A stretch of 64,000 nt of DNA from Dehalococcoidia bacterium (lineage in GTDB: Bacteria > Chloroflexota > Dehalococcoidia > GIF9 > AB-539-J10). The DNA lies in assembly GCA_030615625.1 (NCBI GenBank), contig JAUWYX010000002.1:185918-249917 (forward strand), written 5' to 3'. Positions within the stretch are counted from its first letter, which is position 1, and every line of letters starts with the position of its first letter. This document shows, one piece after another, positions 40,336-56,177 of the stretch. A model generated the notes under the pieces. It made no database searches and was not told the DNA's origin. It was given only the letters and a program-made list of their open reading frames with translations. Position numbers and translations under genes: made by a program.

Positions 40336-40364
40336 GTTGATGAAACTCTCGACAAAACCTCGCC

Positions 40365-42205: not shown

Positions 42206-42304
42206 ATGAACAAGAAGAAGAAAGTGGCTGCCCTGAAGCATCGGCGGCGCCAAAAGAAGCTCGAGGAAAAGAGAAAAACCCAGGCTCCACCGAAGGAACA
42301 ATGA
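42206..42304 (+). CDS. Unlisted 32-aa highly basic micro-ORF, ATGA-coupled to the NTPase gene
   Basis: MNKKKKVAALKHRRRQKKLEEKRKTQAPPKEQ. Its TGA overlaps the ATG at 42301. Confidence 0.3.
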   Translation: MNKKKKVAALKHRRRQKKLEEKRKTQAPPKEQ

Positions 42305-42825
42305 AAAGGGTCCTCCTGTTGACTGGCAAGCCAGGCACAGGTAAAACTGCTCTCATCAAAGAAGCCCTGGCCAGGACCAAAGTCAAGGGGGGCGGCTTCT
42401 ATACTGAGGAGATACGGACTGGGGGAATAAGGCAGGGGTTCAGGATTGTTACCCTCGACGGTCGGGAGGCGATATTAGCCCATGTCGGCATCTCCAGCCC
42501 CTACCAGGTAAGCAAATACAGGGTGGACACGGATAGCCTGAACAGAGTTGGAGTTTCTGTTCTGCGCCAGGCGCTGAAAGAAACCGATTTGATAGTCATT
42601 GATGAGATTGGCAAGATGGAGCTCTTGTCGCCCCAGTTCAAGGAAGCCGTGACGCAAGCAATAAACAGTGGCAAAAAAGTTTTGGGCACTATTATGCTCA
42701 ACCCCCATCCCTTCGCCGACGAAATCAAACGCCGTCCTGAAGTCGAAACGCTCCTGGTAACCAGAGATAACCGCACTGAGGTAATGAAGAAAGTCCTAGA
42801 CTGGCTAACGGCAGAGGTGAACTGA
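42301..42825 (+). CDS. Nucleoside-triphosphatase, COG1618/THEP1-like
   Basis: 174 aa with P-loop GKPGTGKT and Walker B-like LIVIDEIGKME. Confidence 0.7.
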   Translation: MKRVLLLTGKPGTGKTALIKEALARTKVKGGGFYTEEIRTGGIRQGFRIVTLDGREAILAHVGISSPYQVSKYRVDTDSLNRVGVSVLRQALKETDLIVIDEIGKMELLSPQFKEAVTQAINSGKKVLGTIMLNPHPFADEIKRRPEVETLLVTRDNRTEVMKKVLDWLTAEVN

Positions 42826-42828
42826 AGC
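42716..42828 (+). repeat. 113-bp direct repeat, copy 1 (authentic 3' end of the NTPase gene)
   Basis: Identical at all 113 positions to 43644-43756, by direct reading. Confidence 0.9.
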
Positions 42829-42964
42829 TCTCGCTCTCTGCCGCTGAACACTACGCTATCTTGTTGGATAGCCTTCTATTAAAACGATACTTAATCATTG
42901 CGTGTATCAACGAATTTCCATACATACAAGTGAGATTTGATAAGAAAAGTTAAGATAATGTATC

Positions 42965-42994
42965 TTGACCGCTATAGATGCAGAGATATACAAT
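42965..42994 (+). promoter_or_regulatory. Promoter-like element inside the 815-bp insert
   Basis: TTGACC (42965-42970), 18-nt spacer, TACAAT (42989-42994). Confidence 0.35.
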
Positions 42995-43135
42995 GAAATG
43001 CTCGCCAAGGATTTTCGGACCTCTTAGCGACAAATACTGATAAGCCTTTAACAACATAATATTGTTCCGATGACATAGAGGGCACTAAACTGCCACCTGT
43101 ATATGGTCACTTGGGTGGCGGGGAGCCAATAGTGA

Positions 43136-43166
43136 AACCGACCTAGAAATGGTCGGTTTTTGTTTT
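43136..43166 (+). terminator. Intrinsic terminator 25 nt upstream of the DUF5658-like ORF
   Basis: AACCGACC-TAGAAAT-GGTCGGTT is followed by TTTTTGTTTT. Confidence 0.7.
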
Positions 43167-43190
43167 GAAGGGGGGTGATAACTTCCGCAC

Positions 43191-43541
43191 ATGAAAGTAT
43201 TGAAAGTTCCCAAGTTCCTTCATATTGAAAGCCGGACCGTTAGGTATACTCTCTGCGTCCTATTTGGCATAATAGTCGCAGACGGCCTGATAAGCCAGTT
43301 TCTGGTGACAGGTGGATACGGGTCAGAAGCGAACCCTTTGCTGATGTCTTGGGTAGGCGGGGAGTCGTTTCTAGCTATAAAGATATCAGGTGCGTTTCTG
43401 GCCACGTTACTTCTATGGATTAAGTATAATGCCAAGCCCAGACTCGTAAATACGGTCGCAGTGGTAGCTCTGGGATTTTACACAGCCATTGTTTACTGGA
43501 ACTTGTTTGTATTTCTTTTTACTGCTTACCAACCTATCTGA
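43191..43541 (+). CDS. Small polytopic membrane protein, DUF5658-like
   Basis: 116 aa with 4 hydrophobic segments and the motif GSEANPLL. Confidence 0.5.
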   Translation: MKVLKVPKFLHIESRTVRYTLCVLFGIIVADGLISQFLVTGGYGSEANPLLMSWVGGESFLAIKISGAFLATLLLWIKYNAKPRLVNTVAVVALGFYTAIVYWNLFVFLFTAYQPI

Positions 43542-43610
43542 ACAAGGGCACCGGGATCACAAAATCGTCAGAAAAGTGCAATCCCCTTTCGAGGATTAAG
43601 CTCTTTCCGG

Positions 43611-43645
43611 TGTAGGCCTGATTGGTATGGTGTCCTTGGAATTCC
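43611..43645 (-). repeat. X repeat copy A (tRNA acceptor-end-like scar)
   Basis: TGTAGGCCTGATTGGTATGGTGTCCTTGGAATTC directly abuts the second 113-bp copy. Confidence 0.7.
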
Positions 43646-43756
43646 GACGAAATCAAACGCCGTCCTGAAGTCGAAACGCTCCTGGTAACCAGAGATAACC
43701 GCACTGAGGTAATGAAGAAAGTCCTAGACTGGCTAACGGCAGAGGTGAACTGAAGC
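43644..43756 (+). repeat. 113-bp direct repeat, copy 2 (orphan duplicate of the NTPase 3' end)
   Basis: Identical to 42716-42828 and followed by CCCTGCTCAGAAAGCAGCCG, the anticodon-arm-like piece of the R2 repeat. Confidence 0.9.
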
Positions 43757-43953
43757 CCCTGCTCAGAAAGCAGCCGTTTTGCCGGGAGCCATGCTTGATG
43801 GTGACGGGCGAGTCCGATGAGTGGACAGATGATGATGAGGGCGCTCTGCACCCGCTCCCTGCCGCTGAACAGTACGCCAGAAAGTGCAGTGGGGCGAGAG
43901 AGTTTTAGTAAGGCGAGTGCCTGGCCCCGACATTATGAAAATGCAGGACGCAG

Positions 43954-45159
43954 CTAATCCGTTGTCTGGCTTGGCTTGTAAACAAAGGAGACCACCAGCA
44001 ACGCGATGCCACCGGCGATAAATCCAATGCCGAGCCATTGAAGTGGAGCCAGAAGATTGACCAGTACCTGCGATGCCCAGACCTGTAGTTGTGGGGGCGC
44101 AGCAAACATTGCTTGCAATATCTGCTCACCGCCAACATTCTTACCAATCAGTGCGACAGCCAGCACAACAAGTCCAGATGCCAGGAACACTATGCCCAGC
44201 GTGCGCGTTGACCCTTTTACATTGCGGTAGATGAGCACAATACCCGCTATAAGCAGCGCGCTGACGACAATACTGAGAATATATGCAAGCCGGACATAGC
44301 CGACATATTCTCTTACCTTGCTGAGGACTGTTTCCACTGTTGATGTAAACGAAGCAATCTGCAAGGGCGCGTCTTCGCCAATCACCGTCTCGTCAATCTG
44401 GAATGGCGTCGGTAGCATTTCCTCGGAGAATTCAGCCCAAAATGCATCAAATGCCTGCTCCAGCTCTTCAGGTGGCAGCCCTTCCAGTTCATCAGGGGGA
44501 AAATCCAAAAAGATTCCTAGCAGCATTCCCCTCAGGCCATCTATCAGGGGTTCGAGGGAGATGGTAATGCTGAAGCTCTCTACTTCTCCCGCCAGATAAT
44601 CTGCTATCGGACCGGCGGCGTATTTTACTTGCTCTTTTATCCACGGTTCCAGGTCTGTCAGCAGTTCCTCAAAGCCGGCAACCAGATGAGGGAATGCTTC
44701 TTTGGGTAATGGAAATTCCTGCAAGATTTCCTCTCCAAATACTTCCCAGATTATCCTGGCCAGCTGCGGACCATCCATTGTATCTATGACAGCGACAATC
44801 GAATCCGAATTGAGGAGAGTGAGCCGCAGTAAATTCGCTAACTCGGGGTTCTCCCGCTCGCCATGCAGATACTCATAAACAGAATAGACTATGGTATTAA
44901 GTTTGCCTTTAAGATGCGGTTCCAGCGCGGTGATTGTTTCTGTCAGGGAGCCAAGGGCTTCTTCCGAAAGTTCCTCTTGCAACATCTGACTCATTGCTTC
45001 GCTAGCAAGCGGGGCTATTTCCAACCTGTCGCCTTCAGCGGTAACAAAATCGGGGTTGAGTGCGGTCCGGTTGAGCGAAAATGCCAGACCAAATGCGATC
45101 AGGGAGATGAAGAGAATAAAACTTAGTATAATCAGTCCCGCTATCTTTAGTCCTCTCAT
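43954..45159 (-). CDS. Hypothetical membrane protein (N-terminal TM, acidic helical ectodomain, C-terminal multi-TM)
   Basis: Start trimmed to MRGLKIAGL (ATG 45159) after AAGGAG. No family was recognised. Confidence 0.5.
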   Translation of the reverse strand: MRGLKIAGLIILSFILFISLIAFGLAFSLNRTALNPDFVTAEGDRLEIAPLASEAMSQMLQEELSEEALGSLTETITALEPHLKGKLNTIVYSVYEYLHGERENPELANLLRLTLLNSDSIVAVIDTMDGPQLARIIWEVFGEEILQEFPLPKEAFPHLVAGFEELLTDLEPWIKEQVKYAAGPIADYLAGEVESFSITISLEPLIDGLRGMLLGIFLDFPPDELEGLPPEELEQAFDAFWAEFSEEMLPTPFQIDETVIGEDAPLQIASFTSTVETVLSKVREYVGYVRLAYILSIVVSALLIAGIVLIYRNVKGSTRTLGIVFLASGLVVLAVALIGKNVGGEQILQAMFAAPPQLQVWASQVLVNLLAPLQWLGIGFIAGGIALLVVSFVYKPSQTTD

Positions 45160-45347
45160 TAAAATATAACTCCTTGGCTTTTTATTCCAACCCGCACGTA
45201 GCAATAATCCTGGTCACGGCCTGTGCCGCCAAGCATAACCACGCTCTGCAAATATGTCAAGACCGACAAGCATTATTCTAAATTGCCCGTCGTTGATGCA
45301 CAATACATCGGATTGTTCACTTTGCCATGGTATTCTGGGAAAATAAT

Positions 45348-45405
45348 ACCTGGTTTGTAGTAAGCCTAATCCTTCACAAGGTGAAGGATGGTGTCCCTGG
45401 AATTC
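45348..45405 (-). repeat. X repeat copy B (with CCTTCAC-AA-GGTGAAGG hairpin insert)
   Basis: ACCTGGTTTGTAGTAAGCCTAATCCTTCACAAGGTGAAGGATGGTGTCCCTGGAATTC. Confidence 0.75.
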
Positions 45406-45460
45406 GCCCGGTCAGAAAACCGTACCTGTTCTTCCATACGTGCTACTTTAGGTACTCCAG

Positions 45461-45883
45461 CTATTCGATTTCAAAGGTTATATTCTTTAGCTTGTGGTAA
45501 TAGTTACCCTTATGAGCTGTAAAACAGAGCACTGAATAGTCCGGGTCTTCCACACCGAGGGGATAGTATCTTTCATCCCCATCACTCCAGAGCATCTGCC
45601 TTGATTTCAGGTCTTGGAGAATCTGTATGGTTCCGGTTAACATCAATCCTTTAAAGTCTTTGTCATCAACATAATAAACGCATGCCCGGTTATCCTTTTT
45701 TAATTGTTGCACCCTTTTAGAAGAGGTATTGGTGCTGAACCATATCTTATTGATCCCCTCATGTTTAGCATTCATCATGGCTTTGATATTGGGGAACCCG
45801 TCTTCTCCGTTTGTACCGAGCAGGCAAATGTTTGACCTCTCAATAAGTTGTAATCCCTCTGCCAAAGCTTCCTGCTTGTCCAT
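45461..45883 (-). CDS. Pyridoxamine 5'-phosphate oxidase-family (general stress protein 26-like) protein
   Basis: 140 aa. The pattern LGTNGEDGFPNIKAMM...IWFSTNTSSKRVQQLKKDNRACVYY. Confidence 0.6.
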   Translation of the reverse strand: MDKQEALAEGLQLIERSNICLLGTNGEDGFPNIKAMMNAKHEGINKIWFSTNTSSKRVQQLKKDNRACVYYVDDKDFKGLMLTGTIQILQDLKSRQMLWSDGDERYYPLGVEDPDYSVLCFTAHKGNYYHKLKNITFEIE

Positions 45884-45884
45884 A

Positions 45885-46013
45885 TTAGACCCTTCCTGTC
45901 TTTAACATTTCTTTTTTGGATTTTTGCTCGTATTCAACCAGATTTATATCAAAGTCATCTCTCAGAGTCTGCTCAAAAGCTTCTAGTAGACTCCTTTTCC
46001 TATCTATTGTCAT
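45885..46013 (-). CDS. Unlisted 42-aa ORF immediately upstream of the PNPOx-like gene
   Basis: MTIDRKRSLLEAFEQTLRDDFDINLVEYEQKSKKEMLKTGRV, with RBS AAGGAG. Its stop lies 1 nt before the next ATG. Confidence 0.3.
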   Translation of the reverse strand: MTIDRKRSLLEAFEQTLRDDFDINLVEYEQKSKKEMLKTGRV

Positions 46014-46138
46014 CCTGCTCTCCTTTACCTTGCGTTACTTCCATAATACCACGCAACACAGTAAGCGACAATGTTGCCGCTCCATTAAGCAAAACTAGAA
46101 GGAGATCAGAGACAGTATCTGTAGACTGAACAAGAAAC

Positions 46139-46275
46139 CATATTGTCACCTGATATTCTTACCCACTTAGAAAAGCAGTTGCCCCGGCTTTGTGGCGTCC
46201 CTGGAGGGATTCGAAACGCCGACCTCTCGCTTGGAAAGCAGCCGCTAGCTATCTCTTCCGCTGAACACTACGCTG
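46139..46275 (-). repeat. R2 repeat copy 1 with degenerate tRNA-like 3' part (46193-46252)
   Basis: CCATATTGTCACCTGATATTC...TGGCGTCCCTGGAGGGATTCGAAACGCC...GGAAAGCAGCCGC...GCCGCTGAACACTACGC. Confidence 0.7.
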
Positions 46276-46301
46276 TTTCTTTGTGGTTCTGGGGATGTGA
46301 T

Positions 46302-46359
46302 ATCTGATTTGTAGCAGGCCTGATCCTTCACAAGGTGAAGGATGGTGCCCCTGGAATTC
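46302..46359 (-). repeat. X repeat copy C (with hairpin insert)
   Basis: ATCTGATTTGTAGCAGGCCTGATCCTTCACAAGGTGAAGGATGGTGCCCCTGGAATTC. Confidence 0.75.
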
Positions 46360-46622
46360 AGGAGTAACATTCCGCTATTTCGTGCAATACTTCGCGGGGG
46401 CTAAGGTAACAACCTGAGTTTCTTTGCAATTCAGCAAATTGCATAAAAGTCAGAATCGTGTACTGGCAGCTCACCGTTTGACCCACGATGCCAGAAAATG
46501 CAATTGTGAGCGATCATTGACTTTAGTAAAGGTACATCTTATTCTTCTGTAAAGGGCTCGAGGTGTATTGACAGCAAAAACTTGATGGTGGCAGACTTAA
46601 CGCTTGGAACTTGGAATAATTA

Positions 46623-47564
46623 ATGAAGAACATAGCCATTACAGGCATCTCAGGATATATTGGTACTAGGCTCCTGTCCCAGCTTGACACTATCGATAGT
46701 ATTCAGAAGATCATTGGAATTGATATTAGGCAACCAACATTCAGACCCCCAAAGCTTAAATTCTACCTTCAGGACGTACTCAAGCCGTTTAGTGACCTTT
46801 TTATTGAGAACGAAGTCGATACTGCTATACATTTAGCATTCGTATTAAAGCCCACTCGCGAAAGGACATCAGTTCAGAAGATCGATGTCGAAGGTACAAT
46901 AAACTTCGTACGAGCATGCCGACAAGCCAAAGTTGGGCATGCCCTGTACCTGAGCAGTCATACCGTCTACGGCGCACATCATGATAACCCAATTCCACTT
47001 ACCGAGGACTCACCACTGCGACCATTACCTGGTTTCCAGTACTCGTGGGATAAAGCTCAAGCTGAACAAATCATCCGTGATTTTGATCAATCTCAACGTG
47101 ATGTCACTATCACCATCTTGCGCTGCTGTCCGGTAATCGGACCACACGCAGCTGGTTCTGTGCCCGTCCTCATGTTCAAGCCACCCGTAATGATTGGTGT
47201 GGCAGGTTTCGATCCCAGAATGCAATTTGTCCATGAATATGATCTGATACAAGTGATTGAAACCTTCCTGAATCAAAAGAAGAGGGGCATCTTCAATGTG
47301 GCTGGCGAAAGAGATCTCAGATATAGTGAAGTCGCTAAACTAGCAAGGAAAAAATTGCTGAGGCTGCCCGATAGTTTGATTAAGCCTTTGATGCATATAT
47401 CTTGGGCGCTGCATTTGCAGAACGATTCCCCGTATAGTGGCCTTGAGTTCATAAAGTACCCACCCGTAGTAAGCACAGGGAAACTACTGAAGGAGACAGG
47501 ATTCAGGTTTCAGTACTCCACTGAGGAGGCATTATCATCCTTCGTATCCACTCTAAGGAATTGA
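46623..47564 (+). CDS. NAD-dependent epimerase/dehydratase (extended SDR)
   Basis: Rossmann motif TGISGYIG and catalytic YSWDK. Confidence 0.75.
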   Translation: MKNIAITGISGYIGTRLLSQLDTIDSIQKIIGIDIRQPTFRPPKLKFYLQDVLKPFSDLFIENEVDTAIHLAFVLKPTRERTSVQKIDVEGTINFVRACRQAKVGHALYLSSHTVYGAHHDNPIPLTEDSPLRPLPGFQYSWDKAQAEQIIRDFDQSQRDVTITILRCCPVIGPHAAGSVPVLMFKPPVMIGVAGFDPRMQFVHEYDLIQVIETFLNQKKRGIFNVAGERDLRYSEVAKLARKKLLRLPDSLIKPLMHISWALHLQNDSPYSGLEFIKYPPVVSTGKLLKETGFRFQYSTEEALSSFVSTLRN

Positions 47565-47600
47565 TGAGACTTACTGAACAAAACGTCATGTGGACATAAT

Positions 47601-47645
47601 GCCTGATTTATAGCAGGCCTGATTGGTATGGTGTCCCTGGAATTC
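47601..47645 (-). repeat. X repeat copy D
   Basis: GCCTGATTTATAGCAGGCCTGATTGGTATGGTGTCCCTGGAATTC. Confidence 0.75.
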
Positions 47646-47795
47646 CGTGCCTGGTGGTAACTGGCAAGTCCGATGAATGACCAGTTCTGTGATAGATGCT
47701 AAGGGCATCATCAAAGGTAAGAGACTTTGAATACTTATCACCTATGTATCTGAAGTAGCTATGTCTTCAGATTTCTAGTCTCTTGAATTATTAGT

Positions 47796-48524
47796 CTATA
47801 ACTGTCTTCTAGGTTTCCTCTTGACTTTTTTCATGCCTAGCCCTGTAAAGAATGAGTGCCGTTTTTCACAGGCGCGGCATTTGCCACACACACTGCCATT
47901 TGTCGGGTAATAGCAACTCCATGTCATGTTCTTTAGTAGAGAGAAAACATCGAGTGAATGTGCTATTTCTATGAGTTTGTTCACACTAACACGTCCCTTC
48001 TGATTTTTGGGTATTAAGGGTGTGACCACCTCGACCGGCTGACTCATCACCTGCAATAGCTTATTCAATGCATTAACAAAACTAATGGATGTATCATAGA
48101 ACTCATTAAGAAATCCTGTAATTAGCTCAATATGACCTTTTAGCTGTAATATTGCCCGCTCAGACATAATTACAGATAGAGCACAGGAAATAAGAACCAT
48201 ATTTCGATTTTCAACATCAGTTTGTCCAGATTTCGGCCTACCCTTGAGAAGGGCTGACTGACTCCATGGGAAAAAATCGATGTCCGAACTTCTAATCTTA
48301 AAGATCTTGCACTCTTCCACTTGTGTGTCTAGATGCTTCTGCTTCCCAAACTCACGGAGCTTTGGAACCAGTTGCAGCACAGCTCTAGTTTCCTCATTTA
48401 GCGCCTTCTGCCCATAGTCAAAGAATATCGGTATAATTTTCACGGGTTCATTTCCTGACACAGTCTTTAGTATTGCCAAGGTTGAGTCCAACCCTCCTGA
48501 GAATAGGCTATAACAATGCCTCAT
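47796..48524 (-). CDS. QueC-like PP-loop ATPase (7-cyano-7-deazaguanine synthase family, divergent)
   Basis: PP-loop FSGGLDST, FDYGQK, ENRNMVLISCA, and the C-terminal four-Cys zinc motif SCYYPTNGSVCGKCRACEKR. RBS AAGGAGG. Confidence 0.7.
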   Translation of the reverse strand: MRHCYSLFSGGLDSTLAILKTVSGNEPVKIIPIFFDYGQKALNEETRAVLQLVPKLREFGKQKHLDTQVEECKIFKIRSSDIDFFPWSQSALLKGRPKSGQTDVENRNMVLISCALSVIMSERAILQLKGHIELITGFLNEFYDTSISFVNALNKLLQVMSQPVEVVTPLIPKNQKGRVSVNKLIEIAHSLDVFSLLKNMTWSCYYPTNGSVCGKCRACEKRHSFFTGLGMKKVKRKPRRQL

Positions 48525-48653
48525 TTCTTCGCCTCCTTAGGTATTCTTTGGTCGATTGTCCTACCTCATTAGATTGAGATGCTTCTCACTTACTCAAGTA
48601 GCTACAATCAGAAATACGATTAGACTATCGACTAATAGCCCGATTGGATACAC

Positions 48654-49322
48654 CTAGACACTAGTCAATCTATCAATATAGTTGCACCATTGGCAGTTAG
48701 GGGAGGCTTCAGGTGCTTCAGATAATTCAAGCACATCCAGTACTTCATCTATGAACTCTAAGAAGCTTTGCTCGTTCTTTTCTACTTCAATCCAAGTGAT
48801 TTCAGCCTCATAAGAAAGGCGTTCAATGCATTGCTGGCTGATAGTTGAAGGATAGAAATATAGCAACCCTAACCTCGTAATAGGCGATAGGGCTAGAGCA
48901 TTAGGAGCAGGATGTTCTAGAGAATAAGCATATGCATGCAATTGACGACCATAAAGGCTACTCCACTCCATATTTGGATTACCAGTCTTGAAGTCTATAA
49001 CACCATAGGTTGCATCTTCAAAACTAACAGCGATGTCAAATCTTCCACTAAGATAACAAGTGGCACTATGATTTGGTAACTGTATGACTTCCGATCTTAC
49101 CCACTGTTCACCATAACTCACAATGCCAGGAGGTAGAGCAATATGTAGTTCACTTGTATGCTTGCCATCATAGTAGTTTTTCAATAGACTTGCAATCTGG
49201 CTAAAGATAGAGGGCAAGGGAATAGATGGTTGGGATATACCATTAATCATTCTCCAATAAAAGCAACGCTTGCACCTATCATATAGAAACGTGAGGTCTG
49301 ATGGGCTTAGTCTAAAGTTCAT
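48654..49322 (-). CDS. PD-(D/E)XK nuclease, Cas4/RecB-like with terminal Cys pairs
   Basis: GRFDIA...GVIDFKTG (D...D-x-K), QLHAYAY (QxxxY), an N-terminal CKRC and a C-terminal CQWC. Confidence 0.6.
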   Translation of the reverse strand: MNFRLSPSDLTFLYDRCKRCFYWRMINGISQPSIPLPSIFSQIASLLKNYYDGKHTSELHIALPPGIVSYGEQWVRSEVIQLPNHSATCYLSGRFDIAVSFEDATYGVIDFKTGNPNMEWSSLYGRQLHAYAYSLEHPAPNALALSPITRLGLLYFYPSTISQQCIERLSYEAEITWIEVEKNEQSFLEFIDEVLDVLELSEAPEASPNCQWCNYIDRLTSV

Positions 49323-49533
49323 TGAGAATCATCCTCTTGTTGTGATTAGTCTACCATGTCACTCATGCCAAGAATATCTAGAAATCCGACGATATAATTT
49401 GCATATTCCCAACTTTCTCGTGAATTCGACATCCTAGGTATCCATTTCAGCTTATACTAAACATATGCTATCTATATAATACCGCTTTCTAAGGCACTAT
49501 TAAACCCTGTGAAGGGTATTCCGGGGACATGAT

Positions 49534-49577
49534 ACCTGATTTGTAGTAGGCCTGATTGGCATGGTGTCCCTGGAATT
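49534..49577 (-). repeat. X repeat copy E
   Basis: ACCTGATTTGTAGTAGGCCTGATTGGCATGGTGTCCCTGGAATT. Confidence 0.75.
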
Positions 49578-49694
49578 GTACAAGACGGGGCTGACTGGGT
49601 TCTACTTCCCCCCCCTAGTAATGTAACATTCCGTCACAATGTGCAAGTTACTTCAACCGACAATGCAGTTACCACTACCTGTGCTTTATATATT

Positions 49695-49733
49695 TTGACA
49701 AAATTTGACAAAATCTGACGCATAATTTATAAT
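49695..49733 (+). promoter_or_regulatory. Consensus promoter with tandem TTGACAAAA boxes; near-leaderless start of the kinase gene
   Basis: TTGACAAAA occurs twice (49695 and 49705). The second TTGACA is followed by a 17-nt spacer and TATAAT (49728-49733). The ATG at 49742 lies only 8 nt after the -10. Confidence 0.55.
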
Positions 49734-49741
49734 ATCTGAAA

Positions 49742-50848
49742 ATGGAAGAAACAAAGATAGCTGAACTGCTTACTATAAACGAAGCAGCAAGAAAGATGCA
49801 TGTTACAAGACAGACTATTTATGCGTGGATAAGTAGCGGAAGGATTTTGCCTGTAACTACACCGGGGGGAAGACTTAGGATACCAGAGGAGCAGTTGATA
49901 TTGGAAACACCACAAATTAATGAAAGGGGAAACAATGGAGTTTTCAATATTTATGATATTTCTGTTGTTGAACCAATTCAGGATGAACAAATGGGAACCA
50001 AACGGAAATTCTGGTTTGAAATTGAAGGTTCTCGATTCTGGTTTAAATTTGGCAGAGACAACACCGGTGATAACTGGGCCGAGAAAGTGGCAAGTGAATT
50101 ATGTGAACTTATTGGATTACCCCATGCGGAATATGAGTTAGCAGTATGGAGAAAAGCAAAAGGAGTAGTAAGTCCAACGTTCGTTCCGGTTGGAGCTCAG
50201 CTTAGACCTGGGAATGAATTATTGGCTAGAATAATGCGTGGATATGAGATAAAGAAATATTATAAACAAAGAAAACACACTTTGAGATTAGTGATGACAG
50301 TAATGGAAAACAAAGAAATTAAGTTGCCAATTGATTGGTCAGGTTTGGACGGCATTCATTCGGCAGCCGATGTTTTTGTCGGCTATCTCATGCTAGATGC
50401 ATGGATTGCAAATCAAGATAGACATCATGAGAACTGGGCTCATATAGTAGTGCCGGAGGATGGAACTAGAAGTGTGCATTTGGCTCCCTCATACGATCAT
50501 GCATCTAGCTTCGGAAGTAATGAGACAGATGCTAATAGGAAATCGAGATTAACTACGAGAGATACTGGGCGAAGCATGGAAAAATATGTTGAAAGGGCAA
50601 GATCAGCATTTTATTTGACGCCAAATAGTAGTAAACCGTTGTCAACTATTGATGCCTTTCAAAAAGCAGCAAACAGAAGGCCAGAGGCTGCACGGTTATG
50701 GCTTAAGCAACTGGAGGGGATATCTTCATCAGACACACGATCAATATTTGAACGAATACCAAAAACAGAGATAACAGAGGTAGGTATAGAATTCACCCAG
50801 AGAATACTTGGCTTAAATAGCGAAAGACTACTGAAGTTAAGAACATAA
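49742..50848 (+). CDS. Excisionase-type HTH fused to a HipA-like Ser/Thr kinase catalytic domain
   Basis: HTH LLTINEAARKMHVTRQTIYAWISSGRILPV..GGRLRIP. Kinase blocks GTKRKFWF, WAEKVASELCELIGL, IANQDRHHENWAHIV (catalytic loop) and LAPSYDHASS. Confidence 0.75.
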   Translation: MEETKIAELLTINEAARKMHVTRQTIYAWISSGRILPVTTPGGRLRIPEEQLILETPQINERGNNGVFNIYDISVVEPIQDEQMGTKRKFWFEIEGSRFWFKFGRDNTGDNWAEKVASELCELIGLPHAEYELAVWRKAKGVVSPTFVPVGAQLRPGNELLARIMRGYEIKKYYKQRKHTLRLVMTVMENKEIKLPIDWSGLDGIHSAADVFVGYLMLDAWIANQDRHHENWAHIVVPEDGTRSVHLAPSYDHASSFGSNETDANRKSRLTTRDTGRSMEKYVERARSAFYLTPNSSKPLSTIDAFQKAANRRPEAARLWLKQLEGISSSDTRSIFERIPKTEITEVGIEFTQRILGLNSERLLKLRT

Positions 50849-50869
50849 GGTTAAGAGAGGTGAAATATA

Positions 50870-52114
50870 ATGAAGGTGAATGAATTGTATTTGGCTTGGG
50901 AAGATCCGATTGAGCGCAGATGGATGCCAGTAGGTCGGCTAACAATTGACGATAACAATATGCATAAATTTGTATATACAAAAGGAGCTAAGAGTTCTAG
51001 AAACTTCGAACCTTTTGCAAGAATGGAGAAGCTTGATGAAGTGTATAGATCAGAAACTCTATTTCCTTTATTCAACAATCGTCTTTTGTCAGAGTCAAGG
51101 CCAGAACACAATAACTATATGGAGTGGTTGGATATTAAGGACAACGAATATGATGCTTTCACGATGCTCGCGATTACCGGAGGCATCAGGGGCACAGATA
51201 CATTCGAAGTATTTCAATGTCCTAAGCCAAATGATGAAGGAAAATACGAGGTTAAGTTTCTTAGTCACGGATTGCGGCATTTACCTAGACATGCTATTGA
51301 GAGGGTGAACAGTTTTCATAAGGGTGATAGGTTGTTCATTTTACCTGATATTCAGAATAGCTATGATACAATGGCGCTAGGATTGCGCACGGACGACCCG
51401 GTTGAGTGGGTAGGATATTGTCCACGTTATCTTAGTCCAGATTTTTATGAACTGCTGGAAAAATCCAGAACTATGGACATCAAAGTTTCTGTTGAAAGGG
51501 TTAACGTAGATGCACCCCTTCACCTACGTTTGCTCTGTAAAATGGTTGCTCCTTGGCCAGAGGGTTTTGAACCGTGTTCTGGTGAAGAGTTCAAGCCGTT
51601 AGTTGAATATGATTGTGGGTTAACGCCCCTTCCTAAAATTGAGACCCCTGTGAAAGCTACAGAGGTCTCGCACAGCAGTCTCGTGGGGGACTTGAGTAGT
51701 GTAGGTGGCTATGATGATAGCCGTAGCAACTCAAAAAAGTCAAGCGGTATGGTCGATTACCTCCCCAAGGGACGAGTTCTTGGGAGTAATGAAAAACTGA
51801 TGAACAACACACGTTATGGTCGTAGGCAAGAACATAAGGTGGCTCGCCAATTAAGGGGTCATGGTGCTAAAGTCTCGATGAGCCCTGGCAGCAGAGGAGC
51901 TGCTGACCTCAAAGTGCGTTTTCACTCTGGAAGATCCTGGAACGTGCAGGTTAAATCTTCTAGGTCTAGAACAGCAGCATCTCCATCCGCCAAGGAATTA
52001 GGACGCCTTAAAATTAGTGCCAACAGAAGCGCTGCCACGCCTGTTATTGCAGAGGTGACTCCAAAGGGTATTTCTTACAGGTCAGCTCGTTCTAGAAAGA
52101 AACTAAACCCTTAG
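50870..52114 (+). CDS. Three-part fusion: HipA-N/HipS-like domain + HIRAN domain + Hjc/Mrr-like PD-(D/E)XK nuclease domain
   Basis: The N-terminal LFPLFNNRLLSE...FTMLAITGGIRGTDTFEV resembles the HipA N-terminal subdomain. KGDRLFILPDIQNSYDTMALGL...WVGYCPRYLSPDFYELL is HIRAN-like. The C-terminal GRRQEHKVARQLRGHGAKVS..GSRGAADLKV...NVQVKSS aligns with the Hjc/Mrr E...D...QxK core. Confidence 0.6.
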   Translation: MKVNELYLAWEDPIERRWMPVGRLTIDDNNMHKFVYTKGAKSSRNFEPFARMEKLDEVYRSETLFPLFNNRLLSESRPEHNNYMEWLDIKDNEYDAFTMLAITGGIRGTDTFEVFQCPKPNDEGKYEVKFLSHGLRHLPRHAIERVNSFHKGDRLFILPDIQNSYDTMALGLRTDDPVEWVGYCPRYLSPDFYELLEKSRTMDIKVSVERVNVDAPLHLRLLCKMVAPWPEGFEPCSGEEFKPLVEYDCGLTPLPKIETPVKATEVSHSSLVGDLSSVGGYDDSRSNSKKSSGMVDYLPKGRVLGSNEKLMNNTRYGRRQEHKVARQLRGHGAKVSMSPGSRGAADLKVRFHSGRSWNVQVKSSRSRTAASPSAKELGRLKISANRSAATPVIAEVTPKGISYRSARSRKKLNP

Positions 52115-52276
52115 GTACAGACTAACCTATTGGATAGATTGGATAGAATAGGGTCAAGACATTCAAGCCTTGGCCTTATTTTATTGAGATTTTCCACACC
52201 CGGCAAATCGACAGACTTATGGGTGGCAGCAATTTTGTGCCTTCTCAGGATGACCTTGTTAGCAAGATAACGAAAA

Positions 52277-52414
52277 GCCATATTGTTACCTGATATTCTC
52301 GCTTACGTGGAAAAGTAATTGCCCTGGCTGGCGTTGTGGAGTCCCTGGAGGGATTCGAACCCACGACCCGCTGCTCAGAAAGCAGCCGCTATCTACCTCT
52401 GCGGCTCGATAATC
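52277..52414 (-). repeat. R2 repeat copy 2 including the best tRNA-like fragment and a 22-bp copy of the ADH 3' end
   Basis: GCCATATTGTTACCTGATATTCTCGC...TGGAGTCCCTGGAGGGATTCGAACCC...GCTGCTCAGAAAGCAGC...CTACCTCTGCGGCTCGATAATC (52393-52414). Confidence 0.8.
52337..52393 (-). other. tRNA-Arg(UCU)-like 3' fragment (anticodon arm to CCA), not an intact tRNA
   Basis: The minus strand reads GCTGC-TTTCTGA-GCAGC, GGGTC, GTGGG-TTCGAAT-CCCTC, CAGGGAC-T-CCA. There is no complementary 5' acceptor strand and one T-stem mismatch. Confidence 0.6.
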
Positions 52415-52418
52415 TCCA

Positions 52419-52877
52419 TCATATCAAATGCATCCACTCTTCAATCAACTTGAAGGATAGAGAATTAGGATCTCGCAATGGTGAAATGGTATCAGTCATA
52501 GTTATTTGTTGCCAGGATTTAGCATTAGTTACAAAATCCGCATAGTATCTTACAGCTTTTACCTTCCGAAAATGCCTAAACCAAATCCCAAGCTTGGGAT
52601 CTTTTGACCGCACATAGTTATACTTACCAGAAACAGTAGCCAAAGCAAAGGGAAAATGGTGAGCAATGATAAGAACGACATCGTCAACCTTCATTTCGTG
52701 GGCGAATGCCCAGTAGTCTCGTTCATATTCAGGTAGTTTTTCTTGAGCTGTTTTCATTAGATCACCAATGTCGTACTCAAAGTCCAAACCAATGTAACCG
52801 GCAGCAAGGCTTTCAACGCAGTGCTTTACTGCCTCACTGGGTTTGGCTGGATGAAGCTGCATTCTCCAATAAGTCAT
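52419..52877 (-). CDS. Hypothetical 152-aa protein (single-gene module)
   Basis: MTYWRMQLHPAKPSEAVKHCVESLAAGYIGLDF... No family was recognised confidently. Confidence 0.45.
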   Translation of the reverse strand: MTYWRMQLHPAKPSEAVKHCVESLAAGYIGLDFEYDIGDLMKTAQEKLPEYERDYWAFAHEMKVDDVVLIIAHHFPFALATVSGKYNYVRSKDPKLGIWFRHFRKVKAVRYYADFVTNAKSWQQITMTDTISPLRDPNSLSFKLIEEWMHLI

Positions 52878-52995
52878 TTTATTCCTCCAGTTGTTCGTAT
52901 TAACAGAAGCAACTAGCTCCAGCTACACAAAATGGTAGAACCAGTGTTTATACTAATAATTATAACATCCTCTTGTTATCAAAAGTGCACATTAA

Positions 52996-53081
52996 GCCAG
53001 ATTGTTACCTGATATTCTCGCTTACTTGGAAGACAGCCGCTACCTACCTCTGCGGCTCGATAATCACTTTTAGAGAGTCCT
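52996..53081 (-). repeat. R2 repeat copy 3 (tRNA part deleted) plus 38-bp copy of the ADH 3' end
   Basis: GCCAGATTGTTACCTGATATTCTCGCTTACTTGGAAGACAGCCGC. 53044-53081 matches 55149-55186 with one mismatch. Confidence 0.8.
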
Positions 53082-53085
53082 CAAC

Positions 53086-53300
53086 AAAACTCAAAAATTA
53101 AAGGTCAAAAATCAAAATGACAACTCAAAACGCAAAATTTGAACAAACCCAAATATCAAAATCCAAATGTCTAAATGCCAACCCGACTTGTCTTTGTCAT
53201 TTGAGCTCTGTAATTTGACATTATTTAGGATTTGGTCAAGAGATTGCTTCGGCTTCTCCTCGCAATGACAAATAGAAGTAGCCTGTTTCCGCCAGCCCCA
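53086..53300. repeat. Genome-type intergenic repeats inside the island
   Basis: AAAACTCAAAAATTAAAGGTCAAAAATCAAAATGACAACTCAAAA resembles 28335-28380. gagattgcttcggcttctcctcgcaatgacaa belongs to the CGCAATGACA family. Confidence 0.7.
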
Positions 53301-53438
53301 GCCGAAACTTTGCTCCATAAGTGCCACTTGCTCTAAAAGTATTTGTCCTATTTTTGTTTCTTCAATAGGATGGGCTGAAAGAGAACGCTATCCTTCCCAT
53401 CAACTTGGTAGGGTAGAATGTCAACCACTACACGTCTC

Positions 53439-54341
53439 TCATTCATAATCACAGGATCGCCTTTTCTTAATTGCATTACGCGGAAGAGGCGGTGACAAGG
53501 CATACTCTACGGAATCACAGACCGGTTTGAATCCAATCTTTAGATATATAGAATTAGATGTAGGGTTGTTTAAATCTGTATAGAGCGTGCAGAAGTCGTA
53601 ACCACTTTTCAGTATATCCCGGCAGACACCGGCTACGCAGGCTGTAGCATAACCATTTCGGCGGAGTTCCGGTGGTGTATAAACAAGGGTAATTGACATA
53701 CCATGTTCAGTCGGGCGATCTTTCATCACCATAGAGACAGGTTCTTCCGAGTATTCCCACAGATAAATTAGACACTTTCCAATAAATGGAGTAACGTCGC
53801 GTTCGGGTATATTCTGGTTTATTGGACTTCCCACTTCCAACATAAAAGAACGGGTCCATGCAGATGCCAAATCTTTATCTGCCAACGTTGCCAGTCGCAT
53901 ATGACCGGGTATGGAAGAAATGTTATTTACAGAATCAAGACGGTAGATACGCTGTGCCATTGTTGATTTTATAGAGGTTCCAAAATTCTTACACCATCTA
54001 TCCGCAAAGGGGTCTGTTACTTCTCTATGCCCGGCAACCCCCGGTATTTCTGCCCAGCGGCTGTGGACGGCTGCAATCAACGGTAAAACAGCTTTTTCCG
54101 GGTCACCGGCATGCCAAGCCAGACCGACTGGATATGGCGGAGTCCTCCAGGTGAGTGCACTGATACCGTTATTGTCATTCACCGTACAGAACAACGGATC
54201 TTCTTCTCCGTAGTGGTGTGGATTAGCATCCACTAACCGGGCAATACCATAAATGAGACCGTAACGAGCTTCGTCAGAACGAAGCAGGTCACCGGTTTTC
54301 CTAAGGAAATCCGCAGCATCTGAGCAAATTTTAACTTCCAT
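53439..54341 (-). CDS. GNAT-family N-acetyltransferase (two-domain, 300 aa)
   Basis: The C-terminal block LVYTPPELRRNGYATACVAGVCRDIL...TLYTDLNNPTSNSIYLKIGF is the acetyl-CoA binding core. Confidence 0.7.
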   Translation of the reverse strand: MEVKICSDAADFLRKTGDLLRSDEARYGLIYGIARLVDANPHHYGEEDPLFCTVNDNNGISALTWRTPPYPVGLAWHAGDPEKAVLPLIAAVHSRWAEIPGVAGHREVTDPFADRWCKNFGTSIKSTMAQRIYRLDSVNNISSIPGHMRLATLADKDLASAWTRSFMLEVGSPINQNIPERDVTPFIGKCLIYLWEYSEEPVSMVMKDRPTEHGMSITLVYTPPELRRNGYATACVAGVCRDILKSGYDFCTLYTDLNNPTSNSIYLKIGFKPVCDSVEYALSPPLPRNAIKKRRSCDYE

Positions 54342-54432
54342 GCACCCAAATTATAGTATAGCAGGTCAATATAGAACACTTTACACTGATAGCTAATGTG
54401 GAGAATATAATCCATGGTGGAAGAAGGCGAGC

Positions 54433-54569
54433 AGCCTCTATCAATTCGAGCGCTGCGGCATAATCCACCGGGCTGCCACCATAGGAGCTGGTGAGCGTTA
54501 TCTCGTTACGCCAGAACCAGTCCTTCACCGATATAGGAAGGCTAACGCCCGGCTCTGTGGGAGCAAAGA
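54433..54569 (-). pseudogene. Internal fragment copy of the alcohol dehydrogenase gene
   Basis: 54433-54569 aligns with 55272-55408 (FWRNEITLTSSYGGSP.DYAAALELI). The listed ORF 54331..54528 is this fragment. Confidence 0.8.
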
Positions 54570-54580
54570 CTGACGCCTTA

Positions 54581-54904
54581 TTAGCTCCACTCTACTGTGG
54601 GCATTGTCCTGTATGCTGTTATTCTGGGCGTCCCCGTCACAGATGTTCTGGCTCGCCGAAGCAATGCTAGTGTTCCCTTCGACCCCACCCATGTCCTCCA
54701 GTTTTCCATCGTCTCCCACGTGCTTATCATTACGCCGACAGACTCATCCCCCTCGCTGACGAGAAACTCAGCGGTAATGAAGCCCGGATGTTGCATGGCA
54801 CACGACCTGAGCTGCGTCAATATGGGTTCTACGTTCTTATAATCCAACACCTTGTATCCTATGATACCTTTTATCATGCCGTTTTTTTTCACTATCGCTT
54901 GCAT
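54581..54904 (-). CDS. Antibiotic-biosynthesis-monooxygenase (ABM/Dabb) domain protein
   Basis: 107 aa with the ferredoxin-like pattern GFITAEFLVSEGDESVGVMISTWETMENWRTW. Confidence 0.55.
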   Translation of the reverse strand: MQAIVKKNGMIKGIIGYKVLDYKNVEPILTQLRSCAMQHPGFITAEFLVSEGDESVGVMISTWETMENWRTWVGSKGTLALLRRARTSVTGTPRITAYRTMPTVEWS

Positions 54905-55100
54905 TTTCCTTCCCTTTCATGCTTCAGGCTATCTCAATGTGTCCATATACCCTGCCGACATGCAGCCTCTCGAAAGCCTCGGCATCATGACCAATAGCTC
55001 TCTGAACCAACATAGCCTCATCTGATGTTTGTCCTTCAAAACGGTTCTGGTTCACCCAATCGCCTTCTTTAACAAATAAGCCGCTGAAATGTTACAGAAA

Positions 55101-55148
55101 GCCATATTGTTACCTGATATTCTCGCCTGCTTAGAAAGCAGCCGCTAT
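55101..55148 (-). repeat. R2 repeat copy 4, abutting the stop codon of the alcohol dehydrogenase gene
   Basis: GCCATATTGTTACCTGATATTCTCGCCTGCTTAGAAAGCAGCCGCTAT. Only the anticodon-arm piece is kept (loop TTTCTAA on the minus strand). Confidence 0.8.
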
Positions 55149-56177
55149 CTACCTCTGGGGCTCGATAATCACTTTTAGAGAGTCCTGAGCCTGGGCCACA
55201 AGCTGAAATCCCAGGCCTGTTTCCGCCAGCCCCAGCCGGTGGGTAATCATCTCCCGCACACGTTTTTTGCCAGCCTGTATCAGTTCCAGTGCCGCGGCAT
55301 AATCCCCGGGGCTGCCACCATAGGAGCTGGTAAGCGTTATCTCATTGCGCCAGAACAGGTCGTTCACTGATATCGGAATGCTAACGCCCGGCTCTGTGGG
55401 GGCAAAGAAGAGAACAGTGCCTCCCCGCTCCACCGACTCCAATACCTGAGCTATAGCTGATGTCGCCCCGCTGCATATCACGACAAGGTCAGCGAGACGA
55501 CCATCGGCTACCTGACGTAGATAAGTTGGGGTATATTCCTTAGCGTGAATGGCAATATCGGCTCCAAATTTTCGCGCTGCCTCCAGGCGATAATCAACGA
55601 TGTCCGTCGCTATAATGTAACTGGCACCTGAAGTCCGAGCTAGTTGTATATGGAGCAGCCCGGCAACGCCGCTGCCGACAACGAGCACACTTTGCCCTGA
55701 CTGTAGATGAGCTAATCTTTGCCCGCGCAGGACGCAAGCCAGCGGCTCAATAAAGGTCGCTTCCTCAAAAGATACTTCGTCAGGCAAGGGAAATATGCCC
55801 TGGTCGACATTGATGCTTGGCAGCCGCACATATTCAGCAAAGCCACCGGGGTCGAAATTCGTCTGGCGCAGGGTATCGCAAACGGTGTGGTGTCCACCAA
55901 GACAATAGTGGCACGTGTTGCAGGGGACATGATGAGCGGCACAAATCCGATCACCCACTTTACAATGTTCCACCCCCTTCCCGACAGCAACAACCACGCC
56001 GGCAACTTCATGACCCAGGACTAAAGGTGCTTTGTGCAGGCGATACCATTCCAGCAAATCGGTGCCACAGATGCCGCTGGCCTCCACCCGCATCAGTACC
56101 TCGCCGGGGCCAATCTGCGGCGTGGGCATCTCCTCCAGCCGCACATCCTGGTTACTGTAATACATAGCTACACGCAT
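55149..56177 (-). CDS. Zinc-dependent medium-chain alcohol/threonine/sorbitol dehydrogenase
   Basis: GHEVAGVV, the structural zinc Cys cluster CNTCHYCLGGHHTVC, and Rossmann motif VVGSGVAGL. Confidence 0.85.
   Translation of the reverse strand: MRVAMYYSNQDVRLEEMPTPQIGPGEVLMRVEASGICGTDLLEWYRLHKAPLVLGHEVAGVVVAVGKGVEHCKVGDRICAAHHVPCNTCHYCLGGHHTVCDTLRQTNFDPGGFAEYVRLPSINVDQGIFPLPDEVSFEEATFIEPLACVLRGQRLAHLQSGQSVLVVGSGVAGLLHIQLARTSGASYIIATDIVDYRLEAARKFGADIAIHAKEYTPTYLRQVADGRLADLVVICSGATSAIAQVLESVERGGTVLFFAPTEPGVSIPISVNDLFWRNEITLTSSYGGSPGDYAAALELIQAGKKRVREMITHRLGLAETGLGFQLVAQAQDSLKVIIEPQR

Follow-up and report, generated by a model that had tools for sequence, protein, structure and literature searches.

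The 64,000-nucleotide (nt) stretch analysed here, referred to as the window (Dehalococcoidia bacterium, assembly GCA_030615625.1, contig JAUWYX010000002.1, positions 185,918 to 249,917 of the forward strand), contains an array of small gene modules that are delimited by copies of a palindromic repeat of about 63 nt, named X. Comparison with other loci shows that the modules between X copies move independently, with gain, loss and exchange between arrays, loci and genomes, and the assignment of the array as a cassette array is well supported, with little room for doubt. The best reading of these data is that the array probably belongs to an integron-like cassette system, which has a new type of site and is serviced in trans.

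A sequence-only reading of the window had described an AT-rich island, partitioned into cassette-like modules at recurring sites of two kinds, X and R2, with no integrase, transposase or intact tRNA. This description was borne out. The GC content is 0.39-0.45 over 45-54 kb and 0.48-0.55 in the flanks, and the array consists of about 8-9 modules of one or two genes each in mixed orientation, located between two convergent core genes encoding an NTPase (left) and an alcohol dehydrogenase (ADH, right). Searches with the core X and R2 patterns recovered the repeats where that reading had placed them, with 3-5 matches in the window against 0-0.2 expected from dinucleotide shuffles. All the X and R2 copies in the window lie on one strand, and none occurs in the window outside 43.6-55.2 kb. 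Pfam, tblastn and ARAGORN detected no integrase, transposase or tRNA in the 64-kb window.

The X repeat is abundant in the host class. In species-representative genomes (one per species), 79 X stretches were found, nearly all in Dehalococcoidia metagenome-assembled genomes (MAGs) and often on many contigs per MAG; metagenomes contributed at least 120 stretches, and a scan of a viral collection showed X on one contig. The relatives' and other X-bearing loci compared with the window are labelled L001, L154 and so on. All the fetched DNA (about 2 Mb of Dehalococcoidia) gave 622 X profile matches, including 444 full copies, with a median spacing of 1072 nt. Among the loci with at least two copies, all 46 genome loci and 86 of the 88 metagenome loci (132 of 134 in total) show a single orientation of X, and the chance probability of the co-orientation in the genome set is 2^-116. 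One of the rare inverted copies lies at 7687-7750 of L086. The longest open reading frame (ORF) that covers at least half of an inter-X segment is on the X strand in 37 segments and on the opposite strand in 74. The strand of X is thus not tied to gene orientation, which indicates a role at the DNA level rather than at the RNA level.

The mobility of the modules was evaluated using 172 inter-X segments, among which 78 homologous pairs from different loci were found, where the homology covers at least 80% of both members at 72-99% identity. In the testable cases, the neighbours of the shared cassettes proved unrelated 72 times and related 3 times. The homology of the shared cassettes starts at a median of 2-3.5 nt from X, runs through X, and collapses at the outer X edges on both sides. 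At the locus of the window itself, L158, L141, L139, L154 and L200 have the same NTPase and dehydrogenase border genes and other cassette sets. In L154, cassettes 0 and 1 are arranged as in the window and are followed by a single X, whose flanking sequence equals that of X2 on the left and that of X3 on the right. This indicates that the 879-nt cassette 2 of the window (45406-46284) represents a precise gain or loss, and the module-level variation that the sequence-only reading had anticipated among relatives is therefore present as gain and loss at the same locus. The homologues of the dehydrogenase, with 87-92% identity, come from Dehalococcoidia or Chloroflexota assemblies. In L001 and L004, the synteny of DeoC, NIPSNAP and dehydrogenase is kept and the DNA past the dehydrogenase stop codon is all different; in L001, six X copies on the same relative strand follow there between unrelated genes (SHOCT, heliorhodopsin, fasciclin, TspO and HicA).

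These comparisons also bear on the possibility that X is a dispersed repeat in the intergenic DNA of variable islands, similar to a repetitive extragenic palindrome (REP) or a miniature inverted-repeat transposable element (MITE), with no part in moving genes. X is indeed a short palindrome with many copies per genome, and another MITE-like element litters the region. However, the orientation of X is uniform within the arrays, the insertions and deletions occur at the level of cassettes and not of X, the neighbours of shared cassettes are unrelated in 72 cases against 3, and the 51 kb of core genes in the window contain no X. This reading is strongly disfavoured and has hardly any credibility left.

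The aligned copies show that X forms an imperfect palindrome, sharply delimited at either end. The consensus is GGTATTCTGGGGACATAATACC / TGATTTGTAGYAGGCCTRATT / GGTATGGTGTCCCTGGAATTC, the first part of which is also written GGTATTCYGGGGACATAATACC. Pairing of the arms gives a bulge-free stem of 19 bp, which contains one A.G mismatch and is closed by a 21-nt loop, and the z-scores of the fold are −3.9 to −4.5. The predicted stem is continuous, having no unpaired central spacer and no extrahelical bases, and the + strand folds better because three of the pairs are G.U on this strand. The variants of 76 and 86 nt differ from the 63-nt form only by a hairpin inserted in the loop. Each arm may be read as two inverted boxes of about 7 bp around an 8-bp spacer, GGTATTC-TGGGGACA-TAATACC. 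No Rfam family matches X at gathering or permissive thresholds; the GTAGGCCTGAT-like sequence of the loop is presumably reminiscent of the heads of enterobacterial REP sequences.

The conservation of X is about 87% over hundreds of copies at many loci in many genomes, where most of the columns are more than 90% conserved and a few are hypervariable. The 3' end is intact in 95% of the copies, and truncations of the 5' end are commoner. The copies inside one array differ by 7.4 mismatches per 63 nt compared to 8.5 between genomes, and the similarity of neighbouring copies is no greater than that of distant ones. Copies as divergent as those within an array are ill suited to RecA-type recombination, and their divergence argues against gene conversion as a homogenising process. 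Taken together with the position-specific conservation, this divergence favours a site recognised by a protein.

Site-specific recombination in trans is the most likely mechanism, and a probable but unproven one, for the movement of the cassettes; neither an enzyme nor a crossover point nor a circle was seen. In this mechanism, X would be the recombination site for a site-specific recombinase whose gene lies elsewhere in the genome, and its arms would pair into one box-spacer-box duplex, as in the attC sites of integrons or the hairpin sites of CTX phage. Recombination between neighbouring X copies would produce a circle carrying one cassette and one X, and this circle would integrate again at any X or, in occasional cases, at the pseudo-tRNA boundary described below or at pseudo-sites. 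The R2 copies would then be boundary joints left by entries at the dehydrogenase end.

A duplication at the NTPase end could be explained by the same process. A perfect 113-nt repeat of the 3' end of the NTPase gene (42716-42828 is identical to 43644-43756), which the sequence-only reading had not noted, brackets the cassette of a riboswitch and a DUF5658 gene together with X1, and the second copy is followed by a hairpin, H, as in the relatives. The final base of X1 abuts the sequence of NTPase position 42716, that is, the 3' edge of X is joined to DNA that is not X. The A-B-A layout is the product expected from a single crossover of a circle and would be the sole hint here of circular intermediates. 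The duplication may have arisen by re-insertion of a circle that consisted of the NTPase 3' end, the cassette and X, where the 3' edge of X was joined to position 42716.

Several results weigh against recombination by a dedicated enzyme at X. The first group concerns the enzyme. No recombinase or transposase domain is present in the window ORFs of at least 200 amino acids (aa), and tblastn with IntI1, XerD, lambda Int and gamma-delta resolvase as seeds gave nothing in the window. In about 1.35 Mb of X-bearing DNA, no array-adjacent recombinase was found except two unrelated phage-type integrases; 719 kb of metagenomic X loci contained no match to the four seeds, and the clustering of 1140 ORFs from X loci gave no recombinase or transposase family among the ten largest clusters, as checked with Pfam. 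The second group concerns the site. Long-loop X variants adjoin each other in 12 pairs, compared to 3.2 expected; about 20 nt of X are nearly invariant, so that some homologous recombination is possible; the flanking X copies are not detectably co-inherited with the shared cassettes in the comparison of X copies; and the X hairpin shows no covariation, with 91% of the cells pairing, equal to the shuffled control. The absence of covariation indicates that the palindrome is kept through sequence conservation. The mapping of crossover points is uninformative because the shared cassettes themselves have diverged by 3-18%. The clustering of the long-loop variants hints that the resident X is partly copied on the entry of a cassette, or at unequal crossing-over. 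Adjacent long-loop copies are exemplified by X2 and X3 of the window and by L001 16826-17395.

The main rival explanation is based on homology only. In this model, X has another role, such as protein binding or insulation, and supplies portable homology; RecA-dependent crossovers in the flanking X copies would swap cassettes that arrive by transduction or transformation, unequal crossing-over would add or remove slots, and no dedicated recombinase would act. The co-orientation of X and the breakpoints at its edges are equally expected in this case, and the model agrees with the lack of a recombinase near any array and with the neighbouring long-loop variants. The foreign dehydrogenase 3' fragments (88-91% identity) and the 113-nt duplication look like products of Campbell-type homologous insertion, and a small-terminase-like gene in about 17 arrays hints at phage-mediated transfer. 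However, about 7.4 of the 63 positions differ between the X copies of one array, which leaves only short, mismatch-ridden homology; the position-specific conservation and the 19-bp palindrome, maintained across genomes, remain unexplained; and the 3' edge of X is joined to unrelated DNA. The homology-only model is thus considered unlikely, and the trans-acting recombinase is retained as the preferred mechanism.

Since no recombinase is linked to the arrays, the enzyme, if any, acts in trans. The earlier alternative of an array that is either fossil or serviced in trans is consistent with the lack of a nearby recombinase. The two phage-type integrases were both rejected as candidates. The integrase of L053 is of an ordinary phage type and lies beside a tRNA-Lys gene, with a single X located 4.5 kb away, and was judged unrelated. 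The Xer-like integrase of L086 has homologues in phage genomes of about 20 kb that have no X, and it has no IntI insertion. It belongs to a prophage with portal and terminase genes, which occupies 1-5839 of L086 (IMGVR_UViG_3300032118_002471) and ends about 700 bp before the first X of the array.

The boundaries of the array have a different composition from its interior. As shown in Table 1, three pieces are combined in R2 copies 2-4: an X-like 5' half (ATTGTTACCTGATATTCTCGC), H, and the terminal 24-38 nt of a dehydrogenase gene. The presence of the dehydrogenase 3' end in R2, and the further dehydrogenase fragments at 53281-53304 and 54432-54569, had gone unnoticed in the sequence-only reading. 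In R2 copy 1, H, a degenerate pseudo-tRNA and the X-like half are kept and the dehydrogenase end is gone; the T arm and acceptor are kept in copies 1 and 2 also. On the opposite side, the NTPase stop codon in the relatives is followed on the same strand by H, about 25 nt, and the 3' arm of X, TGGTGTCCCTGGAATTC; H is seen after this stop codon in L158, L141, L139 and L154. The array is bracketed by direct repeats of H of about 23 nt that are fused to opposite halves of X, and hybrid sites of H and an X arm are present at both array ends in several relatives. A search for H gave 13 matches, all of them on the strand of X; two are in L113 and the others at the NTPase/ADH locus. R2 is rare elsewhere, and Rfam contains no family matching R2 beyond a weak tRNA match.

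This weak match is on the minus strand of R2 copy 2, where the Rfam tRNA model aligns over positions 10-63 at a permissive threshold with 25.9 bits (E 0.09), compared to the gathering score of 29. The remnant lacks the 5' part and retains the anticodon arm (TCT), a T-loop of sequence GGTTCGAATCC and the terminal CCA. In L001, L004, L075, L025 and L200, a degenerate tRNA-like sequence directly follows the dehydrogenase stop codon and consists of a D-loop remnant, the TCT anticodon arm, the T arm, and the 3' strand of the acceptor with CCA at its end. The L200 remnant is called as tRNA-Arg(tct) by ARAGORN, although there is hardly any pairing in its acceptor stem and Rfam gives it no score. With E values up to 1, Rfam found no tRNA match in the remnants of L004, L025, L075 and L200, and likewise in L113. 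For the array boundary, the link to a tRNA is real. The derivation of R2 from a tRNA, as claimed from sequence alone, is supported by the UCU arm, the T-loop, the CCA end and the ARAGORN call; the covariance-model score is below the gathering threshold.

The outer 17 nt of X (minus strand, GAATTCCAGGGACACCA) resemble the acceptor end of the pseudo-tRNA, which in L113 itself reads ...CCATTCCAGGGATGCCA, in agreement with the sequence-only reading, which had seen a tRNA remnant in the X ends; the remaining 46 nt are not tRNA-like, and these parts are conserved equally with the tRNA-like 17 nt. A tRNA origin of the X arm is plausible and unproven. The sequence-only reading went further and interpreted X and R2 as attachment scars of serial integrations at the 3' half of tRNA-Arg(UCU); in the form considered here, each module would be the remnant of an element and the array would now be fossil. 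The tRNA-like D, anticodon and T arms and CCA end of R2 copy 2, the ARAGORN call in L200, the pseudo-tRNA directly after the dehydrogenase stop codon in five relatives, the anticodon-arm repeats that bracket the array, and the acceptor-like end of X are in accordance with this explanation. However, X is a complete 63-nt palindrome with sharp edges, which is conserved over its whole length (about 87%), including the partner arm and loop that are not derived from a tRNA, and it occurs by hundreds at many loci where no H motif was found. The modules, which range from 0.3 to 2.7 kb, contain no integrase and are individually mobile; R2 is rare beyond this locus; and the Rfam results for the remnants of L004, L025, L075, L200 and L113 give no tRNA match. 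The accretion of tandem elements would require an intact tRNA and element-borne integrases, which were not found; in particular, no intact tRNA is present at either array end. The explanation by tRNA scars is already contradicted for X and is improbable as a whole. R2, which had been regarded as a second class of module boundary, corresponds to the dehydrogenase-proximal end of the array duplicated three times. It is probably a boundary joint on the dehydrogenase side that was duplicated inward by successive entries or imports, as supported by the foreign dehydrogenase fragments (88-91% identity).

Table 1. Features of the array in the window, followed by recurrent sequences in X-bearing loci (coordinates without a locus label refer to the window).
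Feature	Coordinates	Strand	Remarks
NTPase gene; conserved left border, 3' end faces the array	42301-42825	+	Pfam NTPase_1, E 7e-49; also borders the arrays of L139, L141, L154, L158, L200
113-nt perfect direct repeat, first copy: NTPase 3' end, stop codon and 3 nt	42716-42828	+	100% identical to 43644-43756
Cassette 0: c-di-GMP-II riboswitch (43069-43151), DUF5658 membrane protein gene (43191-43541)	42829-43611	+	Rfam, Pfam
X1, partial: loop end and 3' arm	43612-43644	+	final base abuts the second NTPase 3'-end copy
Second NTPase 3'-end copy, the ancestral gene end	43644-43756	+	H follows, as in relatives
Hairpin H (CTGCTCAGAAAGCAGCC...), complement of the pseudo-tRNA anticodon arm	43759-43779	+	left copy of the ~23-nt bracketing repeat
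Cassette 1: 416-aa membrane protein gene (43954-45204), remnant of small recurrent cassette (43785-43882)	43780-45328	-	92% identical to L154 2713-4258
X2, 77-nt variant	45329-45405	+	loop with extra hairpin (CCTTCACAAGGTGAAGG)
Cassette 2: PNPOx-like gene (45461-45883), 42-aa ORF (45885-46013), R2 copy 1	45406-46284	-	whole cassette absent in L154
R2 copy 1: degenerate pseudo-tRNA and H (46228-46247)	46129-46283		inside cassette 2
X3, 76-nt-type variant	46285-46359	+	same loop hairpin as X2
Cassette 3: NAD-dependent epimerase/dehydratase gene (46623-47564)	46360-47591	+	Pfam
X4, without about the first 9 nt of the 5' arm	47592-47645	+	
Cassette 4: QueC-like gene (47796-48524), Cas4-like PD-(D/E)XK nuclease gene (48654-49322)	47646-49514	-	
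X5, full 63-nt form	49515-49578	+	
Cassette 5: HTH + HipA-like kinase gene (49742-50848), HIRAN/REase gene (50870-52114)	49579-52268	+	
R2 copy 2, in order: X-like 5' half (ATTGTTACCTGATATTCTCGC), pseudo-tRNA-Arg(UCU) remnant (minus strand, 52337-52402), H (52372-52391), last 24 nt of dehydrogenase gene	52269-52414	+	
Cassette 6: gene for 152-aa protein (52419-52877)	52415-52987	-	family unassigned
R2 copy 3: X-like 5' half, degenerate H, last 38 nt of dehydrogenase gene	52988-53081	+	
MITE-like insertion (53082-53280) splitting a dehydrogenase 3' fragment, which resumes at 53281-53304	53082-53304		same insertion in L022
GNAT acetyltransferase gene	53439-54341	-	Pfam
Foreign dehydrogenase allele fragment	54432-54569	-	88% identical to 55271-55408
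ABM monooxygenase-like gene	54581-54904	-	Pfam
R2 copy 4, right boundary of the array: X-like 5' half, H (55127-55147), dehydrogenase stop codon and last 38 nt	55094-55186	+	
Zn-dependent alcohol dehydrogenase gene; conserved right border, 3' end faces the array	55149-56177	-	
357-nt ORF-less cassette	L019 4758-5114; L068 2641-2992, 6413-6769; L037 1792-2148, 5866-6222; L055 6793-7144; L028 407-763		
138-aa protein gene	L092 2656-3069; L188 10062-10475; L194 7756-8169; L001 12985-13398; L078 (two copies); others		
Small recurrent sequence	42832-42857, 43853-43877, 46252-46274; L001 19392-19505; L016; L075; L076		the window copies are 3'-end remnants

Pfam assigned NTPase_1, DUF5658, PNPOx-like, epimerase, QueC-like, PD-(D/E)XK nuclease, HTH and HipA-like, HIRAN/REase, GNAT acetyltransferase, ABM-family and Zn-dependent dehydrogenase domains to the array and its border genes; the array also encodes a 416-aa membrane protein and a 152-aa protein with no assigned family. 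The larger ORFs elsewhere in the window are all housekeeping genes, and exact-protein look-ups gave no record identical to the NTPase or the dehydrogenase of the window. At gathering thresholds, Rfam identified in the whole window only the cyclic di-GMP-II (c-di-GMP-II) riboswitch and a lone 5S rRNA gene. The latter, located at 57649-57765 by the DeoC aldolase gene with no 16S or 23S gene near, is conserved in L001 (6892-7008) and L004 (5285-5401). The MITE-like repeat is present in the window at 40165-40368, 41693-41902, 42018-42057 and 53082-53280, and also at 6170-6330 of L086, in L154 and in L141; it yields junk ORFs of the 'VIASEAWQS / SLRGPTCRAVAIS' type.

The cassettes of the X arrays carry HicB, HEPN/MNT, MazF, Fic and GNAT proteins, candidate defence systems and small membrane proteins, and these contents are typical of chromosomal integrons. 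In cassette 5 of the window, the pair of HTH/HipA-like and HIRAN/REase genes (49742-52114) matches the PADLOC candidate PDC-M03 A+B with E values of 1.9e-116 and 6.1e-91. The pair of QueC-like and Cas4-like nuclease genes in cassette 4 (47796-49322) is a second cassette that looks like a defence module. The c-di-GMP-II riboswitch (57.1 bits) is located upstream of the DUF5658 gene within a mobile cassette, which is also the first cassette after the NTPase gene in L158, L154, L139 and L141.

Other recurrent cassettes were observed in the compared loci. A complete sigma-70 gene forms an X-bounded cassette in L015 (2338-3816) and also in L020, L039 and L079, with different neighbours, and heliorhodopsin genes are present within arrays in nine X loci (L153 12349-13188; L001 17437-18204, between X copies). 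A 357-nt cassette with no plausible ORF occurs seven times; it combines a promoter-like TTGACA...TATGAT with a structured, G-rich body and an end that resembles a terminator, and no Rfam family matches it. A 138-aa protein with the motif KRKRGGQKGNRNACKHGFYS is encoded in about 17 X loci with 87-99% identity, and it is 33-36% identical to the product of the gene just upstream of the large terminase in Dehalococcoidia phages of about 20 kb (L087-L091). From this similarity, a small-terminase-like gene in the arrays could link the spread of cassettes to phage packaging. A small recurrent sequence, ...GAGCCATGCYTGATGGTRAC...CCCTGCCGCTGAACACTACGC, is often found directly after X and could encode an acidic peptide of about 37 aa. 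The motif GTAACATTCCG...TGTGCAA, which could be a common 5' element or promoter of cassettes, occurs shortly after X3 (46364-46387), X5 (49623-49646) and the single X of L154 (2684-2712).

The overall proposal is that uncultured Dehalococcoidia possess a previously undescribed cassette system, which would not be an integron, with several arrays per genome. Its 63-nt site would possibly come from the acceptor/T-arm end of a tRNA-Arg attachment site, the trans-acting enzyme would be a host Xer-type or a new recombinase, and the system would circulate toxin-antitoxin pairs, candidate defence systems, riboswitch-controlled genes, sigma factors, heliorhodopsins and ORF-less RNA cassettes throughout the clade. 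In this full form, the chances for and against the proposal are considered about equal. In the collection of papers searched, none linked Dehalococcoidia with attC, integrons or such cassette arrays.

Among known systems, integron arrays are the closest match in behaviour. In integrons and in attC-site clusters that have no integron-integrase (CALINs), such as the Vibrio cholerae repeat (VCR) arrays of Vibrio, palindromic sites are likewise co-oriented at about every 1 kb, site-bounded units of one or two genes are independently gained, lost and reshuffled, the loop of the site varies in length, many arrays have no nearby integrase, and the cassettes encode toxin-antitoxin pairs, acetyltransferases and small unknown proteins. 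The array could accordingly be an ordinary integron, either a CALIN or part of a sedentary chromosomal integron, in which X is a lineage-specific attC site and IntI is encoded elsewhere. Besides the unidirectional arrays, the shuffling of cassettes of about 1 kb, the palindromic site and the integron-like repertoire, this explanation can draw on the facts that integrons are reported in Chloroflexi and that CALINs are common (PMC4889954).

The site itself, however, is different. The AAC/GTT triplet is the most conserved attC feature, within the boxes R'' RYYYAAC and R' GTTRRRY (PMC4889954). In 194 full X copies, where both motifs were sought within 25 nt of the ends on either strand with 8-nt flanks included, no copy contained them (0/194). 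The stem of X is continuous over 19 bp and has one mismatch, in place of the R and L boxes, unpaired central spacer and extrahelical bases of attC, and the boxes of X are 8 nt apart compared to 5. In integrons, most cassette genes share the orientation of the site, which lies at their 3' end. The X arrays differ from integrons in that their genes point both ways (37 to 74, about 1:2), that there are several arrays per genome, and that at least one is bracketed by repeats derived from a pseudo-tRNA. IntI is a tyrosine recombinase with an extra domain of about 35 residues. With IntI1 as the query, tblastn detected no IntI-like gene in either the window or the roughly 1.35 Mb of X loci, and an IntI may be encoded elsewhere in these genomes; the nearby Xer-like integrase of L086 has no IntI insertion and comes from a phage family without X. 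An ordinary integron is thus very improbable, and a cassette system with a site of its own is preferred.

The second comparison is with tandem genomic islands at tRNA and tmRNA genes, exemplified by the ssrA-specific islands of Dehalococcoides mccartyi, which are multi-kb elements that each have their own integrase and whose repeats are the 3' segment of the RNA gene. The host class is the same, the variable region abuts a tRNA-like sequence, RNA-gene-derived direct repeats bracket the insert, and the 3' end of the target gene is duplicated. In contrast, the X modules are only 0.3-2.7 kb in size, contain no integrase, and are delimited by a full palindromic site that is also present at loci where no H was found. 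The tandem-island model accounts for the pseudo-tRNA boundary alone.

The pdif modules of Acinetobacter plasmids have 28-bp sites (11-6-11) that match dif and alternate in orientation, and CTX phage has a Xer-dependent hairpin site. These elements resemble the X arrays in their small modules and short recombinase-type sites, and theirs are served in trans by a housekeeping tyrosine recombinase. In the CTX-phage hairpin, the folded single strand can recreate a duplex core, similar to the box-spacer-box reading of the X arms. X differs from pdif by its length of 63 nt and its co-orientation. A dif-likeness of X, judged by eye only, was weak and unconvincing.

Many-copy intergenic palindromes that are acted on in trans include REP sequences and bacterial interspersed mosaic elements (BIMEs) with their REP-associated tyrosine transposases (RAYTs), and the dRS3 repeats and Neisseria intergenic mosaic elements (NIMEs), of which the Neisseria ones are tied to variable intergenic regions. 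Neither group is known to delimit independently mobile gene cassettes or to keep one orientation over arrays of at least 10 units. X is similar to REP as a palindrome at many loci and differs by its unidirectional arrays and the mobility of its cassettes.

Integrons are the only well-understood system known to store and shuffle single-gene cassettes, and their reach is usually mapped by searches for attC and IntI. An abundant cassette system that has another site and no linked integrase would escape such searches, and the host in this case is a widespread, uncultured sediment lineage. X offers a simple 63-nt probe for collecting cassettes from metagenomes and for tracing the cognate recombinase. 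If the preferred reading is true, the arrays provide a route to the flexible-genome content of Dehalococcoidia, including defence systems, rhodopsins and sigma factors, and the lifestyle of integrons has evolved or diversified beyond IntI and attC.

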